From positions 80,598 to 144,597 of the forward strand of contig CAWBDD010000021.1 in assembly GCA_963787465.1 (NCBI GenBank): DNA of 64,000 bases. Direction: 5' to 3'. Positions 26,226 through 63,448 of the stretch are shown piece after piece. A program made the position numbers and the translations under genes. Source of the DNA: an uncultured Thermoplasmata archaeon (GTDB lineage Archaea; Thermoplasmatota; Thermoplasmata; UBA10834). How positions within the stretch are numbered: position 1 is the stretch's first letter; each line of letters opens with the position of its first letter. The notes under the pieces are model-generated. The model searched no databases. It worked only from the letters and a program-made list of their open reading frames with translations, and was not told where the DNA came from.

Positions 26226-27002
26226 TCAGTAGTATCCTGCGACTTCCTGCGTCTGCTGACCCCGGCTCTTCTTCTCGGTGTCCTTGTGCAGGACCTTCAG
26301 CTGCGCCTCGAGCCTCTCGGCCTCCTTGCAGAGCGGTTCCACGTTCAGGTTCATGTGGAGGACCATCTGATCGATGGCTGCGAGTATCAGCGCCGCCGCG
26401 CGCGCGTCGGCCATGTCCGGCCTGGCCTCGGCGAGCAGGGTGATGACATCGACGCCGCGCCTCTTGCCCTCGTTCAGCAGGACCCCGGCTGTCCCGGAGA
26501 TCACGCCTTCTACGAACGGCTCGGCGTCAGCCTGCTTGAGCAGCTCCTGAGCGGAGTCGGTGCTGCCGATGCCGTAGACCGCGATCTCGGAGGCCTCGTC
26601 CGGCTCGTCCCCGTCCTCGCCGTGCTCCACGACCAGCCCGCCCGCGGAGATCACGAGCTTGCACTTCTGGGCCTGCGCGAAGTCGATTATCGCCGTCCCG
26701 AGAGGTCTCAGGAGGTTCGCCTGAGGCTGGAGCTCGGTGGAGAACACGACGATCTGCTGGTCGCCCTCCCTCAGGAACGGGCGCGCGTACACGCGCGCGG
26801 GTCCCAGAGGTTCACCGTCTCGGATCAGCGAGATGGTGGGGAACAGGTCGGAGTCCATGGCGGCGATGTACTCCATCTTCAGAAGAGCGATCAGGTAGTT
26901 GGCGACGATGGAGCTGACGAGCCCCACACTCGGGAAACCATCGATTATGACTGCGTTCCTGAGGTCCATGCGCCTGAGCTCGAATATCTCTATGTCGCCC
27001 AT
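26226..27002 (-). CDS. Proteasome assembly chaperone family protein (PAC2/PbaA-B-like)
   Basis: 258 aa. N-terminal LRNAVIIDGFPSVGLVSSIVANYLI matches the PAC2-family pattern, and the C-terminal tail is acidic. Confidence 0.65.
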   Translation of the reverse strand: MGDIEIFELRRMDLRNAVIIDGFPSVGLVSSIVANYLIALLKMEYIAAMDSDLFPTISLIRDGEPLGPARVYARPFLREGDQQIVVFSTELQPQANLLRPLGTAIIDFAQAQKCKLVISAGGLVVEHGEDGDEPDEASEIAVYGIGSTDSAQELLKQADAEPFVEGVISGTAGVLLNEGKRRGVDVITLLAEARPDMADARAAALILAAIDQMVLHMNLNVEPLCKEAERLEAQLKVLHKDTEKKSRGQQTQEVAGYY

Positions 27003-27096
27003 GCGAAAACTGGGAGAGCTATACGGGGTGTTTATACTTAGCCCTCAGGGCACCGGGCCCGGACAGCGGAGCCGCGGACCGGGTCTAGCATATGTT

Positions 27097-27102
27097 TTAT
27101 AC
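27097..27102 (+). promoter_or_regulatory. Archaeal TATA box (TTTATA) ~30 nt upstream of tRNA-Arg
   Basis: TTTATA is at the canonical -26 to -30 spacing from the tRNA 5' end. Confidence 0.45.
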
Positions 27103-27131
27103 AGACGGGCATTATGCCTATTGTGCCAGGT

Positions 27132-27251
27132 GGGCCGGTGGCTTAGACCGGATATAGCACTGGCCTTCTAAGGGCCCGAAGGGCCCGAAGGTAGCCAGTG
27201 GTCTCGGGTTCGAAAGGTGCCCGTGTGCGCCCGGAACTCCCGACCGGCCCG
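27132..27251 (+). tRNA. tRNA-Arg(TCT) with two predicted introns: a canonical 37/38 intron of ~22 nt and a second ~23-nt insertion between the T-loop and the 3' T-stem
   Basis: Acceptor GGGCCGG/CCGGCCC+G. D-arm GCTT..G18G19..AAGC. Anticodon stem CTGGC/GCCAG with loop CTTCTAA (anticodon TCT). T-arm TCGGG-TTCGAAA...CCCGA. Confidence 0.55.
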
Positions 27252-27319
27252 CTAGGCCCATCAAAAGGCATATTAAAAGGAAGCGATATGGGCCAAAGCG
27301 GCTCAAGGGAGTCTGACTC

Positions 27320-27427
27320 ATGAAGCGAAGCTCAAGGGCCTGGAAGAAGAAGGGCAAGCAGCGCTGGAAATGGCGCAAGAAGAAGATGCGCAGAAGAAAG
27401 AGGGCCCAGAAGCTACGAAAGAAGTAG
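27320..27427 (+). CDS. rpl41e: Ribosomal protein L41e
   Basis: 35-aa ORF MKRSSRAWKKKGKQRWKWRKKKMRRRKRAQKLRKK. It is extremely basic, typical of L41e, and is missed by the >=60 aa ORF track. An A/T-rich TATA-like CATATTAAAA lies ~45 nt upstream. Confidence 0.7.
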   Translation: MKRSSRAWKKKGKQRWKWRKKKMRRRKRAQKLRKK

Positions 27428-27451
27428 GCTCCCCATAATCAAACCACTTGT

Positions 27452-27626
27452 GGGGGTATGGGGTAACCTGGTATCCTTACGGGCTCCAGTTATGGGAATG
27501 ATTAGCGTTGGGTTAGCTGACCAGTGATGAGTAACTGGAGCGATGACCCATAGTCCGTAGAACGGGCGGAGTCGCTCTCCGCCTGGTGGAAACCCGTTGA
27601 TGGGGGTTCAAATCCCTCTGCCCCCA
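27452..27626 (+). tRNA. tRNA-Trp(CCA) with a 102-nt canonical (37/38) intron
   Basis: Acceptor GGGGGTA/TGCCCCC+A. D-arm GGGT-AACCTGGT-ATCC. Anticodon stem ACGGG/CCCGT with loop CTCCAG|intron|A. T-arm GGGGG-TTCAAAT-CCCTC. Confidence 0.7.
27490..27591 (+). ncRNA. Box C/D sRNA-like element embedded in the tRNA-Trp intron. Its guide is complementary to the tRNA's own anticodon loop, predicting Cm34 formation.
   Basis: A C-like AATGATTA box, a D' CTGA box and a perfect C' GTGATGA box are present. The guide GTAACTGGAGC is the reverse complement of GCTCCAGTTAC, spanning C34-C35-A36. The nucleotide 5 nt upstream of the terminal (A/C)TGA box pairs with C34. Confidence 0.5.
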
Positions 27627-27745
27627 CTCCTAGGCATAGCCATTGCGGCCCTCTGCCCGGAGAACCCAAATCTGAGCTACATGTGGTGCTGGCTCAGTTT
27701 ACACAGGGACACATTGAATCTCTGTAGCGACCAATTGTCAGGATT

Positions 27746-28174
27746 TCATTGCGAGCGCCGTGGCCTCCCGACCTTCTCGTTGCGTACGAGCATGACCGAA
27801 GGCGAGACTCGCGGTATCGCGGACAGCACGCCGAGGGCGCATGCCGCGACTGCGAGATAGAACCCCAATCCCAACGACAGATGATTGATGGAATCGGGCC
27901 CTGAGTAAATGCCCAGACTCCCCCACGAGATATCGATGAACAATGTCAGTCCTACGGTCAGTGGCACGACTGCCAGAAAGGTGAACAGGACCGCGAACGA
28001 GCCGATGACAAGCATCCAGACCATCGTTGAATACTCGAGACCTGAATTGAAGAAGCTGTCCAGCAGGCCGATCTCTCTCACATACGTGAACTCGCCGGTG
28101 AAGTCCCAAGCCGACGCTCGCGAATAGATCAGCCATGGAAGGTACAGAGAAGCCAGGCCAACCGCACAAGCCAT
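27746..28174 (-). CDS. Integral membrane protein (4 TM). The N-terminal region is paralogous to the N-terminus of 29228-30442.
   Basis: MACAVGLASLYLPWLIYSRASAWDFTGEF... compared with ...GLASLLLPWQWTAEGFSSTDWSV... A hydrophobic protein-like frame. Confidence 0.5.
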   Translation of the reverse strand: MACAVGLASLYLPWLIYSRASAWDFTGEFTYVREIGLLDSFFNSGLEYSTMVWMLVIGSFAVLFTFLAVVPLTVGLTLFIDISWGSLGIYSGPDSINHLSLGLGFYLAVAACALGVLSAIPRVSPSVMLVRNEKVGRPRRSQ

Positions 28175-32947: not shown

Positions 32948-33118
32948 GGGGACCCCGCCTCCCTCCAGGGAGCGGGATGGGGATTGCCCTTCATGAACGT
33001 ATCTGGGGGATTCCGGGCAGGCGAGGAGACATGGTCCATCATCGTGCGCTGTCCGCCCCACCAGCCATAGCAGGGCTTGGGCGAAAAGGTTATTCAGGAA
33101 CGCGGTTTACCTGCACCC

Positions 33119-33769
33119 ATGCACAAGGTCGTCACCATCGACATGGAGAGGGACCTGCTCGCAGAGAACCGGCGCATCGCCAACGAGAACCGGGCGCTCC
33201 TGGAGAAGAACGATATCGTGGCGTTCGACTTCCTCGGCGGGATCGGCTCCGGCAAGACCTTGATCATCGAGAAGCTGGTCGACGCGCTGAAGGCGAAGGG
33301 GAAACGCTGCGCTGCGATAGCCGGGGACGTCTCCGGTGACGACGACTATCAGAGGTTCGTCAAGCACGGGATCCCCGCGTCCAACGTGAACACCGGCAAG
33401 GAATGCCACCTGGACGCCCACCTCGTGGACCACGCGCTCGAGGACCTCCCGCTGGCGGAACTCGATTACATATTCGTTGAGAACGTCGGGAACCTGGTGT
33501 GCCCGGTCGATTTCCCTGTCGGCTCGCACAAGAGGGTCGTCGTCATAAGCGTGACAGAGGGCGACGACATGGTCCGGAAGCACCCGCCGATCTTCGCTTT
33601 CAGCGATGTCATCATCATAAACAAGGTCGACCTGGCAGAGGCCATGGAAGTCGACCCGAAGATACTCGAGCGTGACGCCAGGCGGATCAACCCAGGCGCG
33701 AAGGTCATATTCATGGACACGCGCCGGGGAAAGGGGATGACCGAGCTCATGGATGCGCTCGGCATCTAG
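33119..33769 (+). CDS. hypB: Hydrogenase nickel-incorporation GTPase HypB
   Basis: P-loop GGIGSGKTLIIEKL and a CH...C metal-binding region. A BRE/TATA-like AAAAGGTTATTCA sits ~25 nt upstream of ATG 33119. Confidence 0.85.
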   Translation: MHKVVTIDMERDLLAENRRIANENRALLEKNDIVAFDFLGGIGSGKTLIIEKLVDALKAKGKRCAAIAGDVSGDDDYQRFVKHGIPASNVNTGKECHLDAHLVDHALEDLPLAELDYIFVENVGNLVCPVDFPVGSHKRVVVISVTEGDDMVRKHPPIFAFSDVIIINKVDLAEAMEVDPKILERDARRINPGAKVIFMDTRRGKGMTELMDALGI

Positions 33770-33778
33770 GGGCTGAAG

Positions 33779-35986
33779 ATGAAGGTCACGGTCTACGGCA
33801 TCGTCCAGGGCGTCGGCTTCAGGCCGACGGTCTACCGTGTCGCGAAGGCCATGGGGCTGAAGGGGTTCGTGCTGAACAACGGTTCGAACGTCGAGATACA
33901 CGTCGACCGCGACGTGGAGGAGTTCCTCAGACGGCTCAAAGCGGCCCTCCCCGCGCTGGCGAGGATAGACAGGGCCGACATCGAGGAGATGCGGGAGGAG
34001 CTGCAGGACTTCACGATCCACCACAGCGAGCAGGGCGCGAGGGTCTCGCTGATCCCCACGGACACCGCGATTTGCGACAGGTGCGCCTCCGACTTCCAGA
34101 GCTCGGGGGGAAAGAGGCATCTCTTCCCATTCACGAACTGCACCGAATGCGGGGCCAGGTTCACAGTGATAGCCGACCTGCCCTTCGACAGGGCCCGGAC
34201 GAGCATGACCGACTTCCCGATGTGCCCTTCGTGCACGGAGGAGTACGCCTCGCCGGAGGACAGGAGGTTCCACGCGCAGACCATCTCGTGCCCCGAGTGC
34301 GGCCCAACGTACACACTATACGATAGTGGACGTAGGGAGGTCGCCGGTGACCCGTTCAAGATCTTCGCGGACAAGATCGACGGAGGAGCCGTCGGCCTTC
34401 TGAAGGGCTGGGGGGGCATGCACATCGTCTGCGGCTTCGCCGGCGCGCCGAGGCTGAGGAAGGTCTACCGGAGGGGGGACAAGCCCTATGCCGTCATGAT
34501 GCGGGACCTCGCGACCGCCAAGAGGTATGCCCGCGTCACGTCCGAGGAGGAGAGGCTCCTGACTTCGCCTCAGAGGCCAATCGTCCTCCTCCACAAGGAG
34601 GAGACGGCGGCGAGGACCCTCGAGGAGGTCTCGCCGGGCCTCGGGAACATCGGGGTCATGCTCCCGTACTCCGGGGCGCATCTGCTACTGTTCGAGCACC
34701 TGAGGGCGGACGGGATCGTCATGACGTCCGCGAACCCTCCAGGCGAGCCCATGGTCACCGTGAACGACCACGCCTTCGATCTCGGCCTCGACTTCTACCT
34801 CATGCACGACAGGAGGATCATCCACCGCTGCGACGACAGTGTGGTCAAGGTCAACTCGGGGATGACCAACTTCACCAGGAAGTCCAGGGGGTTCGTGCCC
34901 ATGCCGGTCGAGGCGAACCACGGACACACGGTCATCGGCGTCGGGGCCCAGTGGGACGTCACGGGGTCCGTCTCGAGGACCGGCGAGATATTCCTGACGC
35001 AGTACGTGGGGGACAGCCAGCAGTACCCGACGCTCCAGTACCTCGACGACGCGATACACCACCTCGGAGGCCTGTTGGGGACGAAGAAGGTCGACGCCAT
35101 AGGCCTCGACAAGCACCCGAGGTACTCGACCAGGATAGTAGCGAAGAGGCTTGCGAAGGAGCACGGGTGCGAGCTGATCGAGACACAGCACTATCATGCG
35201 CACGCGGCGGCGCTCAAGATCGACAGGAAGGTCGACGGGCCGCTCGTCACACTCGCGTGGGACGGGACCGGGTACGGCGACGACGGGACCTCGTGGGGCG
35301 GCGAGACGCTCCTCGCCGATTTCGACAGCTACAGGAGGCTCGGGACCCTCGAGGGGATCCCGCTCCTGGGTGGGGACCGTGCGATCATCGACCCCGGAAG
35401 GGTCGTCACCGCGATCCAACTGCAGCTCGGACTCGAGCCGACGCTCGTCGCGGGGGACCAGGCGGACATCTTCTCCAAGATGATGGGGAAGAGCGTCAAG
35501 GCCTCCAGCATGGGCAGGGTGCTGGACGCCGTCTCATGTATCCTCGGCATCTGCTGCAAGCGGACCTACGAGGGTGAGCCGGCGATCAAGCTCGAGAGAT
35601 GGCTCGAGGTCGGTGAACCCGTTGTCCCGTTCGAGGTCGAGTTCTCCTCTCAAGGAGGTGTCGAAGCCGCCAGGACGCTCCCCATGTTCGAGAGACTGCT
35701 CTCCGCAGACATCTCGACGGACAGGAAGAAGGCCGACGCCGCCGCATCCTTCGTCAAGGCCCTTGTCATGGCGCTCGCGGGCCGCGCCTGCGAGCACGCG
35801 CGCGAGGAAGGGCTGAGGCACGTCGGGCTCACGGGCGGTGTCTCATACAGCGGGCCCGTCGCGGCGTGGACCAATGAGGCCGTCGAGGCGCACGGCCTGG
35901 AGTTCGTCGGGCACGAGAGGATATGCAACGGGGACGGGGGCATCTCCACCGGCCAGAACGCCATAGCTGGCGCGAGGCTCGGGTAA
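33779..35986 (+). CDS. hypF: Carbamoyltransferase HypF
   Basis: 735 aa. N-terminal acylphosphatase domain, two CxxC...CxxC zinc fingers, a YrdC domain and a Kae1-like domain. Confidence 0.9.
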   Translation: MKVTVYGIVQGVGFRPTVYRVAKAMGLKGFVLNNGSNVEIHVDRDVEEFLRRLKAALPALARIDRADIEEMREELQDFTIHHSEQGARVSLIPTDTAICDRCASDFQSSGGKRHLFPFTNCTECGARFTVIADLPFDRARTSMTDFPMCPSCTEEYASPEDRRFHAQTISCPECGPTYTLYDSGRREVAGDPFKIFADKIDGGAVGLLKGWGGMHIVCGFAGAPRLRKVYRRGDKPYAVMMRDLATAKRYARVTSEEERLLTSPQRPIVLLHKEETAARTLEEVSPGLGNIGVMLPYSGAHLLLFEHLRADGIVMTSANPPGEPMVTVNDHAFDLGLDFYLMHDRRIIHRCDDSVVKVNSGMTNFTRKSRGFVPMPVEANHGHTVIGVGAQWDVTGSVSRTGEIFLTQYVGDSQQYPTLQYLDDAIHHLGGLLGTKKVDAIGLDKHPRYSTRIVAKRLAKEHGCELIETQHYHAHAAALKIDRKVDGPLVTLAWDGTGYGDDGTSWGGETLLADFDSYRRLGTLEGIPLLGGDRAIIDPGRVVTAIQLQLGLEPTLVAGDQADIFSKMMGKSVKASSMGRVLDAVSCILGICCKRTYEGEPAIKLERWLEVGEPVVPFEVEFSSQGGVEAARTLPMFERLLSADISTDRKKADAAASFVKALVMALAGRACEHAREEGLRHVGLTGGVSYSGPVAAWTNEAVEAHGLEFVGHERICNGDGGISTGQNAIAGARLG

Positions 35987-63342: not shown

Positions 63343-63448
63343 CGCTGAGGGGGAGATTTGAACTCCCGAGGCGCAAAGCGCCACGAGCTTGCTAGCATGG
63401 CAACCTGAGTTTCCAGGCTCGCGCCTTACCGGGCTGGGCCACCTCAGC
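63343..63448 (-). tRNA. tRNA-Ser(GGA), class II, with a ~21-nt canonical intron
   Basis: Acceptor GCTGAGG/CCTCAGC+G. Anticodon stem CGAGC/GCTCG with loop CTGGAA|intron|A. Long variable arm GGCGC-TTT-GCGCC. T-arm GGGAG-TTCAAAT-CTCCC. A TTTAAATA TATA box lies 25 nt upstream (63471-63480 on minus). Confidence 0.65.

Follow-up and report, generated by a model that had tools for sequence, protein, structure and literature searches.

The tRNA-Trp intron of an uncultured Thermoplasmata archaeon contains a box C/D sRNA with predicted guides to positions 34 and 39 of its pre-tRNA

Background

The tRNA-Trp gene in a 64-kb stretch of DNA from an uncultured Thermoplasmata archaeon (the window) raises the question of whether its long intron is a guide RNA for 2'-O-methylation, and if so, which nucleotides of the pre-tRNA it would select and how it relates to the tRNA-Trp introns known from other archaea. 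According to an earlier note, made from the letters of the window alone, the intron carries a C' box, a D' box, a terminal ATGA motif and one guide complementary to the anticodon loop of its own pre-tRNA, and it was proposed to direct methylation of C34 as in halophiles.

As described in the passages on this intron in reviews (PMC7994747, PMC4090602, PMC7714728), archaeal tRNA-Trp introns have a median length of 65 nt and nest a box C/D sRNA. According to the same passages, the intron sRNA of Haloferax volcanii selects C34 and U39 for 2'-O-methylation in trans, and splicing releases the Haloferax intron of 103 nt in circular form, the cells remaining viable without it; the guide work on Haloferax pre-tRNATrp (Omer 2000; Clouet d'Orval 2001; Singh 2004) is cited here through these reviews. 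For the tRNA-Trp of Pyrococcus furiosus, C34 and C39 are named as predicted targets in the review text that covers this organism. The tRNA-Trp intron sRNAs of about 27 archaea were listed by Grosjean et al. (2008, BMC Genomics 9:470, Additional File 4; PMC2584109), the groups included being Halobacteria, Methanosarcinales, Methanomicrobiales, Thermococcales, Archaeoglobus, Methanobacteriales, a Pyrobaculum and four Thermoplasmatales.

Results

The tRNA-Trp(CCA) gene extends from 27452 to 27626 on the forward strand, as do all its parts described below; its exons were joined by hand. The 5' exon of 38 nt (27452-27489) ends with G37 and contains C34 at 27486, and the 3' exon of 35 nt (27592-27626) begins with A38, contains C39 at 27593 and ends with the discriminator A at 27626. 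Between G37 and A38, at the canonical 37/38 site, lies an intron (27490-27591) of 102 nt, the length also given in the earlier note. The spliced tRNA has a length of 73 nt, with the acceptor stem GGGGGUA/UGCCCCC and the anticodon arm ACGGG/CUCCAGA/CCCGU, CUCCAGA being the anticodon loop. Folded alone, the intron reaches a minimum free energy of -41.2 kcal/mol, which corresponds to a z-score of -3.8 relative to shuffled sequences.

Relatives of this locus were collected in two ways. A genome scan, for which an alignment of close homologues of the adjacent PAC2-family protein served as query, yielded 37 loci, all of them in MAGs of uncultured Thermoplasmata. A full-length pre-tRNA-Trp is located at the same position in 29 loci, and further partial copies end at contig ends. 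Across the 29 syntenic MAG loci the pre-tRNA-Trp is 90-96% identical over 175 nt, intron included; in the same genomes, identities are 73-85% for the PAC2 protein, 78-91% for the DNA of a small upstream ORF resembling eL41 and 71-87% for a neighbouring tRNA-Arg. The variation of the intron among these 29 relatives is concentrated in a linker downstream of the sRNA, and the boxes and the cores of both guides are invariant or nearly so. A metagenome scan with the pattern TGATTW-N12-13-CTGA-N3-6-TGATGA-N5-TGGA-N3-ATGA, which fixes positions 4 to 7 (p4-p7) of the D guide, matched at least 120 stretches, and 120 of the 120 matches listed are located inside tRNA-Trp genes, directly after CTCCAG. The matches listed and the MAG loci together comprise 99 unique sequences, whose introns are either short (66-70 nt) or long (97-104 nt). 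The distribution among named taxa outside the host clade was taken from the literature list (PMC2584109).

Every element of an archaeal box C/D sRNA can be recognized in the intron. Its terminal stem is formed by UUAUGGG at 27490-27496 (39-45, if nucleotides of the pre-tRNA are counted from 27452 as 1) and CCCAUAG at 27547-27553 (96-102); the first three to four nucleotides of the 5' strand double as target of the D guide. The stem is followed by a bulge of three nucleotides (A46, A47, U48) and by box C, AUGAUUA (consensus RUGAUGA), at 27498-27504 (47-53), which is conserved in 29 of 29 relatives. Box C, which together with the preceding nucleotide reads AATGATTA (27497-27504), had previously been overlooked. 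Downstream are the 12-nt D' guide GCGUUGGGUUAG (27505-27516; 54-65), box D' CUGA (27517-27520; 66-69), the 3-nt spacer CCA (27521-27523; 70-72) and box C' GUGAUGA (27524-27530; 73-79), and these are followed by the 12-nt D guide GUAACUGGAGCG (27531-27542; 80-91) and box D, AUGA (consensus CUGA), at 27543-27546 (92-95). Boxes D' and C' are invariant among the relatives. The GTGATGA, CTGA and terminal ATGA motifs reported earlier as boxes C' and D' and as the reference for counting are thus all present. As aligned, the sRNA reads GGGA A UGAUUA GCGUUGGGUUAG CUGA CCAG UGAUGA GUAACUGGAGCG AUGA CCC, with spacers of exactly 12 nt each between boxes C and D' and between boxes C' and D.

The layout permits the standard pairs of a K-turn, namely sheared G49.A95 and A50.G94, then U51.U93 and U52:A92. 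Judged by rule, as nearest-neighbour folding cannot represent K-turns, the intron combines a canonical stem, a 3-nt bulge, tandem G.A pairs, a U.U pair and a Watson-Crick pair. The departures of boxes C and D from their consensus compensate each other: the sixth nucleotide of box C (U52) pairs with the first nucleotide of box D (A92), which replaces the usual G:C pair. Box D' (CUGA) and the UGAUGA of box C', with the CCA spacer between them, can form the internal K-loop. Pairs -1 to -5 of the terminal stem are kept in 99, 99, 94, 79 and 81 of the 99 unique sequences (matches listed and MAG loci), and the exchanges seen in the family are G:C with A:U, U:A with A:U, and C:G. By the sequence features that define the class, the tRNA-Trp intron is thus confirmed to contain a complete archaeal box C/D sRNA.

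Standard annotation tools passed over this locus. ARAGORN, as run on the 64-kb window, reported no tRNA and thus missed the tRNA-Trp gene, and Rfam at gathering threshold gave nothing at this position of the window. In a permissive Rfam scan of the region 27050-27750, archaeal box C/D models matched 27494-27549, every score being under the gathering threshold. The top match was sR3 (RF01133) with 28.8 bits and an E-value of 2.5e-5 (gathering threshold 41), followed by snoPyro_CD (RF00095) with 25.5 bits (gathering threshold 45). These low scores are explained by the departure of boxes C and D from consensus and by the different flanks of the guides, and since the Rfam C/D models are species-level families, a score below gathering is no defining failure for the C/D class. 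Over the whole window, the Rfam search at gathering threshold returned solely a fluoride riboswitch and a tRNA at 63343-63448.

The D guide is complementary to the anticodon loop and the adjoining 5' exon-intron junction. Positions 27532-27541 of the guide are the exact reverse complement of 27483-27492, that is of G31 to intron nucleotide 3, and a G.U pair (G80.U42, the latter being intron nucleotide 4) extends the ten Watson-Crick pairs by one. The guide stretch is GTAACTGGAGC (27531-27541) and its target in the pre-tRNA is GCTCCAGTTAT (27483-27493). The complementarity noticed in the earlier note is therefore real, but the target given there, GCTCCAGTTAC, has to be replaced by GCTCCAGTTAT, and the duplex consists of ten Watson-Crick pairs and a terminal G.U rather than of eleven Watson-Crick pairs. 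C34 (27486) is opposite the guide nucleotide that is fifth from box D; here the earlier N+5 count from the terminal ATGA was correct. The exact 10-mer of the D guide occurs twice in 64 kb, once in the target and once in the guide, and a Watson-Crick run of at least 10 anywhere in the pre-tRNA was obtained with 0.045% of 20,000 shuffled guides (4.5e-4). Positions p2, p8, p9, p10 and p11 of the D guide, which were left free by the search pattern, are paired in 98 to 99 of the 99 unique sequences (matches listed and MAG loci), in which p10 also covaries with intron nucleotide 2 (A:U 91, G:C 5, G:U 3; counts of sequences, not of independent events). In the same set, the mean number of paired positions is 9.93 in register 0, compared to at most 4.64 after sliding the guide by 1 to 5 nt. 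C34 as predicted 2'-O-methylation target of the D guide is thus supported by sequence comparison.

The earlier note had considered a second antisense element, directed to U39. Such an element exists in the form of the D' guide, which had not been noticed then, and its predicted target is C39 instead of U39. Nucleotides U63, U62, G61, G60, G59 and U58 of the D' guide pair with A102 (the last nucleotide of the intron), A38, C39, C40, C41 and G42, so that a duplex of five Watson-Crick pairs and one G.U pair spans the 3' intron-exon junction and N+5 falls on C39 (27593). In the window sequence alone, a run of five Watson-Crick pairs is not above chance, as 75% of shuffled guides reach the same, and elsewhere in the pre-tRNA longer pairings that include G.U are available to this G/U-rich guide. 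The D' pairing hence rests on comparative data. Positions p3-p7 of the D' guide are paired in 98 to 99 of the 99 unique sequences (matches listed and MAG loci), and p3, paired in all 99, covaries with the last intron nucleotide (C:G 62, U:A 37, again counting sequences and not independent events). Register 0 gives a mean of 7.05 paired positions in this set versus at most 4.87 after slides of 1 to 5 nt. Positions p8-p12 vary freely in the family, without compensation.

Downstream of the sRNA, the intron continues with a variable linker (27554-27562), the sole part that shows indels and free substitution among the relatives, and with an accessory hairpin (27563-27585) with a 9-bp stem and the loop UCGCU, which is confined to the long-intron subclass. 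RNAalifold analysis of 16 diverse long introns recovered the nine pairs of this hairpin, four of them with compensatory double changes, and exchanges between G:C and C:G and between C:G and U:A are found in relatives. The 3' strand of the putative bulge-helix-bulge motif (27586-27592) comprises GUGG, opposite C35, C34, U33 and C32, and the bulge formed by A, A and, beyond the splice site, A38; the 3' end of the intron, GUGGAA, thus lies opposite C35-C32 and contributes the 3' bulge. The geometry was taken from the drawing of H. volcanii pre-tRNATrp, which has a stem 27-31/39-43, a central helix 32-35, a 3' bulge and a 5' bulge made of 36, 37 and, across the splice site, i1. In the window, the bulges are A36, G37 and U on the 5' side and A, A and A38 on the 3' side, and the Haloferax geometry is matched at three of the four positions of the central helix: C32:G (C:G in 99 of the 99 unique sequences from matches listed and MAG loci), U33.G (U:A or U.G in 99 of 99 of this set) and C35:G (C:G in 97 of 99, same set). 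C34, however, faces U, and it is mismatched in 97 of these 99 sequences (C.A 77, C.U 20). Registers in which C32-A36 or C34-G37 pair with UGG(A/U)G are thermodynamically better, but were rejected because of the 8-nt anticodon loop.

The splicing motif is non-canonical also in a second respect. In introns of the short class, h' is formed by the terminal stem of the sRNA itself; long introns have the linker and the hairpin inserted at this junction, so that the h' side is interrupted and the accessory hairpin is flanked directly by the sRNA terminal stem on one side and by the 3' strand of the splicing helix on the other. The D target shares C32-C35 with the central helix of the putative splicing motif, and it also overlaps the sRNA terminal stem in its outer part. 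Because of the nucleotides shared with the splicing helix, the guiding and the splicing conformation would be mutually exclusive.

Discussion

Taken together, these features make it highly probable that the intron encodes a dual-guide box C/D sRNA homologous to the intron guides of Haloferax, of Pyrococcus (sR50) and, especially, of the Thermoplasmatales. Thermoplasma acidophilum, T. volcanium, F. acidarmanus and P. torridus (PMC2584109) share with the window the location of the sRNA in the tRNA-Trp intron, the order of box C, D' guide, box D', box C', D guide and box D, the odd UGAUUA/AUGA boxes, a short D'-C' spacer and two guide cores: ACUGGA in the D guide, by which C34 comes to lie at N+5, and GGGU in the D' guide, which does the same for position 39. 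Given the identical box order, the same odd boxes C and D and the same two guide cores, the locus belongs to a documented family and bears its class-level signature. The Thermoplasmatales introns are short (listed sRNAs of about 58 nt), whereas the intron in the window has 102 nt, the difference being due to the linker and the 9-bp hairpin that follow the sRNA. The D guides differ as well, with UGGAAC (A at p3) in the Thermoplasmatales and UGGAGC, whose G pairs with C32, in the window. Six metagenomic sequences among the matches listed contain the UGGAAC guide, with the p3 A opposite C32; the idea that this A reflects covariation with U32 was dropped, as these sequences show C32 and thus an A.C mismatch. 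Finally, the host of the window belongs to an uncultured Thermoplasmata clade outside the Thermoplasmatales.

With Haloferax, the window has in common an intron of nearly the same length at 37/38 (103 and 102 nt) and two guides that each span a splice junction, the D guide the 5' junction to reach C34 and the D' guide the 3' junction to reach position 39. Guide pairing and the bulge-helix-bulge motif exclude each other in Haloferax, and would do so in the window. In contrast to the window, the Haloferax guide is experimentally proven; position 39 is U (Um39) in Haloferax and C in the window, as in Pyrococcus; the Haloferax boxes GGACGA/UGACGA/CCGA are unlike those found here; the additional length is accounted for by a hairpin between boxes D' and C' in Haloferax, but by a hairpin after box D in the window; and the central helix is fully paired in Haloferax, including C34:G, whereas C34 faces U in the window and A in most of its relatives. 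Pyrococcus sR50 and the C/D sRNAs of the Rfam type (sR3, snoPyro_CD) resemble the window in being compact dual guides with 12-nt spacers, and the sR3 consensus has the same guide cores, GGGU and UGGAGC. The assumption of the earlier note that the intron guides methylation of its pre-tRNA as in halophiles thus holds with respect to Haloferax, yet the arrangement is by no means specific for halophiles (PMC2584109). Neither is it new for the lineage at class level, as had been claimed, for four Thermoplasmatales have already been listed (PMC2584109). Guides of this kind in tRNA-Trp introns have been known for 25 years from many archaea, including relatives of the same class, and the window is an ordinary example. 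What it adds to the known family are minor differences, namely the host clade, C39, the p3 G opposite C32, and the linker and hairpin behind the sRNA.

By analogy with the family, L7Ae would bind to the K-turn of boxes C and D and to the K-loop of boxes C' and D', followed by assembly of Nop5 and fibrillarin. A motif search of the 64-kb window for fibrillarin, Nop5 and L7Ae found none of the three, a result that carries no information, the genome having a size of about 2 Mb. Paired with G31 to intron nucleotide 3 or 4, the D guide places C34 at N+5, and the D' guide, paired with the last intron nucleotide to C41 or G42, places C39 there. Both duplexes include intron nucleotides, which means that only the unspliced pre-tRNA would be a substrate. 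By the same analogy, 2'-O-methylation would yield Cm34 and Cm39 before splicing; the splicing endonuclease would then cut the bulge-helix-bulge-like motif after G37 and before A38, and the excised intron might persist as an sRNP. Since nothing separates the 3' end of the D target from the terminal stem of the sRNA, action in trans seems more plausible than action strictly in cis, and the guide may thus act mainly on other pre-tRNA molecules than its own, as it reportedly does in Haloferax. For the host lineage, we infer methylation, the order of these events and the stability of the intron from the related systems. Deletion of the intron is not lethal in Haloferax, and the physiological weight of the guide may therefore be small.

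An unlikely alternative to two working guides is that only the D guide, directed to C34, is functional, and that the D' region represents a structural spacer or has another target, for example in rRNA, leaving position 39 unmethylated. This would be consistent with the shortness of the D' duplex in the window, whose five contiguous Watson-Crick pairs are matched by shuffled guides, with the availability of other, G.U-rich pairings, and with the uncompensated variation of p8-p12. It does not account for the nearly universal pairing of p3-p7 in the 99 unique sequences (matches listed and MAG loci) with C39 exactly at N+5, nor for the covariation of p3 with the last intron nucleotide in this set, nor for the superiority of the N+5 register over every slid register. 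Moreover, the D'-to-39 layout is listed for about 27 archaea (PMC2584109) and, according to the reviews, was tested in Haloferax.

It is also conceivable, though very improbable, that the C/D element is a relic which no longer directs methylation, and that its complementarity to the anticodon arm merely shapes the folding of the pre-tRNA or the timing of splicing. Pairing of the D guide would necessarily affect the splicing conformation, as its target overlaps the splicing helix; in addition, the boxes are non-consensus (AUGAUUA, AUGA), the Rfam scores are sub-threshold, and the Haloferax intron is described as dispensable for viability in the passages of the reviews that treat it (PMC7994747, PMC4090602, PMC7714728). 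Yet the deviations of the boxes compensate each other and the G.A tandem is kept, and a role in folding would need neither the 12-nt spacers nor the exact N+5 registers, both of which are conserved in the 99 unique sequences (matches listed and MAG loci). Least of all can the boxes and the complementarity be attributed to coincidence in a long intron. CTGA and ATGA are indeed common short motifs, and if one mismatch is allowed, the number of occurrences of the 10-mer in the window equals the chance expectation. However, the low frequency of 10-bp runs among shuffled guides (4.5e-4), the location of all 120 matches listed inside tRNA-Trp genes, the covariation of guides with targets and within the stem, and a layout identical to that of the published family (PMC2584109) have to be set against this, and we regard a chance resemblance as refuted by the sequence data. 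A dual-guide sRNA hence remains the preferred interpretation.

With regard to splicing, the C34 mismatch and the accessory hairpin could form a three-way junction in place of a simple bulge-helix-bulge, and this variant splicing substrate might be a conformational switch in which the splicing fold is weakened as long as C34 and C39 lack their methyl groups, but we consider this a speculative and rather improbable suggestion. If true, the order of methylation and splicing would be hard-wired in the RNA, and the splicing endonuclease of this clade would also accept a non-canonical motif.

The window does not change our understanding of the guide mechanism. It does extend the range of archaea with a self-targeting guide in the tRNA-Trp intron by an uncultured Thermoplasmata clade that lives in soil and sediment, and the UGAUUA/AUGA box pair is conserved well beyond the cultivated Thermoplasmatales. 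As the tRNA-Trp gene was missed by standard tRNA and Rfam scans, the box pattern could help to annotate MAGs of this kind.

The genes upstream of tRNA-Trp are a PAC2-family gene on the reverse strand (26226-27002; Pfam E-value 3e-36), a tRNA-Arg(TCT) gene on the forward strand (27132-27251) with two introns at 27171-27192 (37/38) and 27215-27237 (59/60), and an eL41-like basic ORF of 35 codons (27320-27427, forward strand), which stops 24 nt upstream of tRNA-Trp. The few named homologues of the PAC2 protein are assigned to Thermoplasmata, Thermoplasmatota or 'Euryarchaeota archaeon RBG_...'. The peptide encoded by the eL41-like ORF is almost invariant among relatives despite the 78-91% identity of its DNA; searches of the peptide against Pfam and NCBIfam gave no match, and the label rpl41e used in the earlier note thus lacks support from these collections. 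As to the conserved island proposed there, tRNA-Arg(TCT) is syntenic in 36 related MAG loci, the eL41-like ORF precedes tRNA-Trp in 113 of 118 loci with sufficient upstream room, and the PAC2 gene, tRNA-Arg, the eL41-like ORF and tRNA-Trp are found together in about 35 related MAGs.

Predicted splicing motif and intron architecture of pre-tRNATrp

Within the predicted splicing motif, the central helix formed by window positions 27484-27487 and 27586-27589 leaves C34 unpaired in 97 of the 99 unique pre-tRNATrp sequences among the matches listed, with a C.A mismatch in 77 and a C.U mismatch in 20 of these 99. The three pairs flanking the mismatch are retained in the pre-tRNATrp family (loci L002-L158). 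In the splicing motif of Haloferax, C34 is paired with G.

Six metagenome loci among the matches listed (L042 and L067, both from ACXJ contigs, and L069, L120, L131 and L141) carry a D guide of the Thermoplasmatales type, UGGAAC or UGGAAU, in which the A at guide position p3 faces C32. This creates an A.C mismatch two nucleotides away from where methylation is predicted; judging from these sequences, the D guide would therefore tolerate such a mismatch opposite C32.

A 9-bp accessory hairpin (27563-27585, + strand) is located 3' of the sRNA within the tRNA-Trp intron and characterizes a subclass of long introns (97-104 nt; for example at loci L045, L050, L080, L083 and L151); short-intron relatives (66-70 nt) do not have it. 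Its pairing is preserved although the clades differ in sequence (GCGGAG/CUCCGC versus GGGGG/CCCCC).

Genomic neighborhood of tRNA-Trp

An eL41-like ORF of 35 codons (27320-27427, + strand), encoding a very basic peptide (MKRSSRAWKKKGKQRWKWRKKKMRRRKRAQKLRKK), ends 24 nt upstream of tRNA-Trp in the window. Searches in Pfam and NCBIfam gave no match for this ORF. The peptide is nearly invariant across 33 relatives, at a DNA identity of 78-91%. Among the matches listed, 113 of the 118 loci with room for it have an eL41-like ORF immediately 5' of tRNA-Trp and in the same orientation, a count that takes in the short-intron classes. This arrangement suggests that the two genes represent a widely conserved and possibly co-transcribed pair.

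The three tRNA genes recognised within the window are all interrupted by introns; none of them was reported by ARAGORN with the settings used. tRNA-Arg(TCT) (27132-27251, + strand) apparently has two introns: one of 22 nt at 37/38 (27171-27192, + strand), within which GGGCCCGAAG occurs twice as a direct repeat, and one of 23 nt in the T-loop at 59/60 (27215-27237, + strand). The unspliced gene scores just 18.6 bits with the Rfam tRNA model; joining the exons gives a 75-nt tRNA whose acceptor, anticodon and T arms are canonical. tRNA-Ser(GGA) (63343-63448, - strand; Rfam tRNA, 42.7 bits) is interrupted at 37/38 by an intron about 21 nt long.

Elsewhere in the window, two adjoining ORFs on the + strand would encode a HypB-like GTPase (33077-33769) and a HypF-like carbamoyltransferase (33779-35986), both of which we take, from their sequence features, to be putative hydrogenase maturation genes. 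At 1068-1131 on the - strand, Rfam model RF01734 identifies a fluoride riboswitch (crcB motif) with 45.5 bits and E 2e-9.
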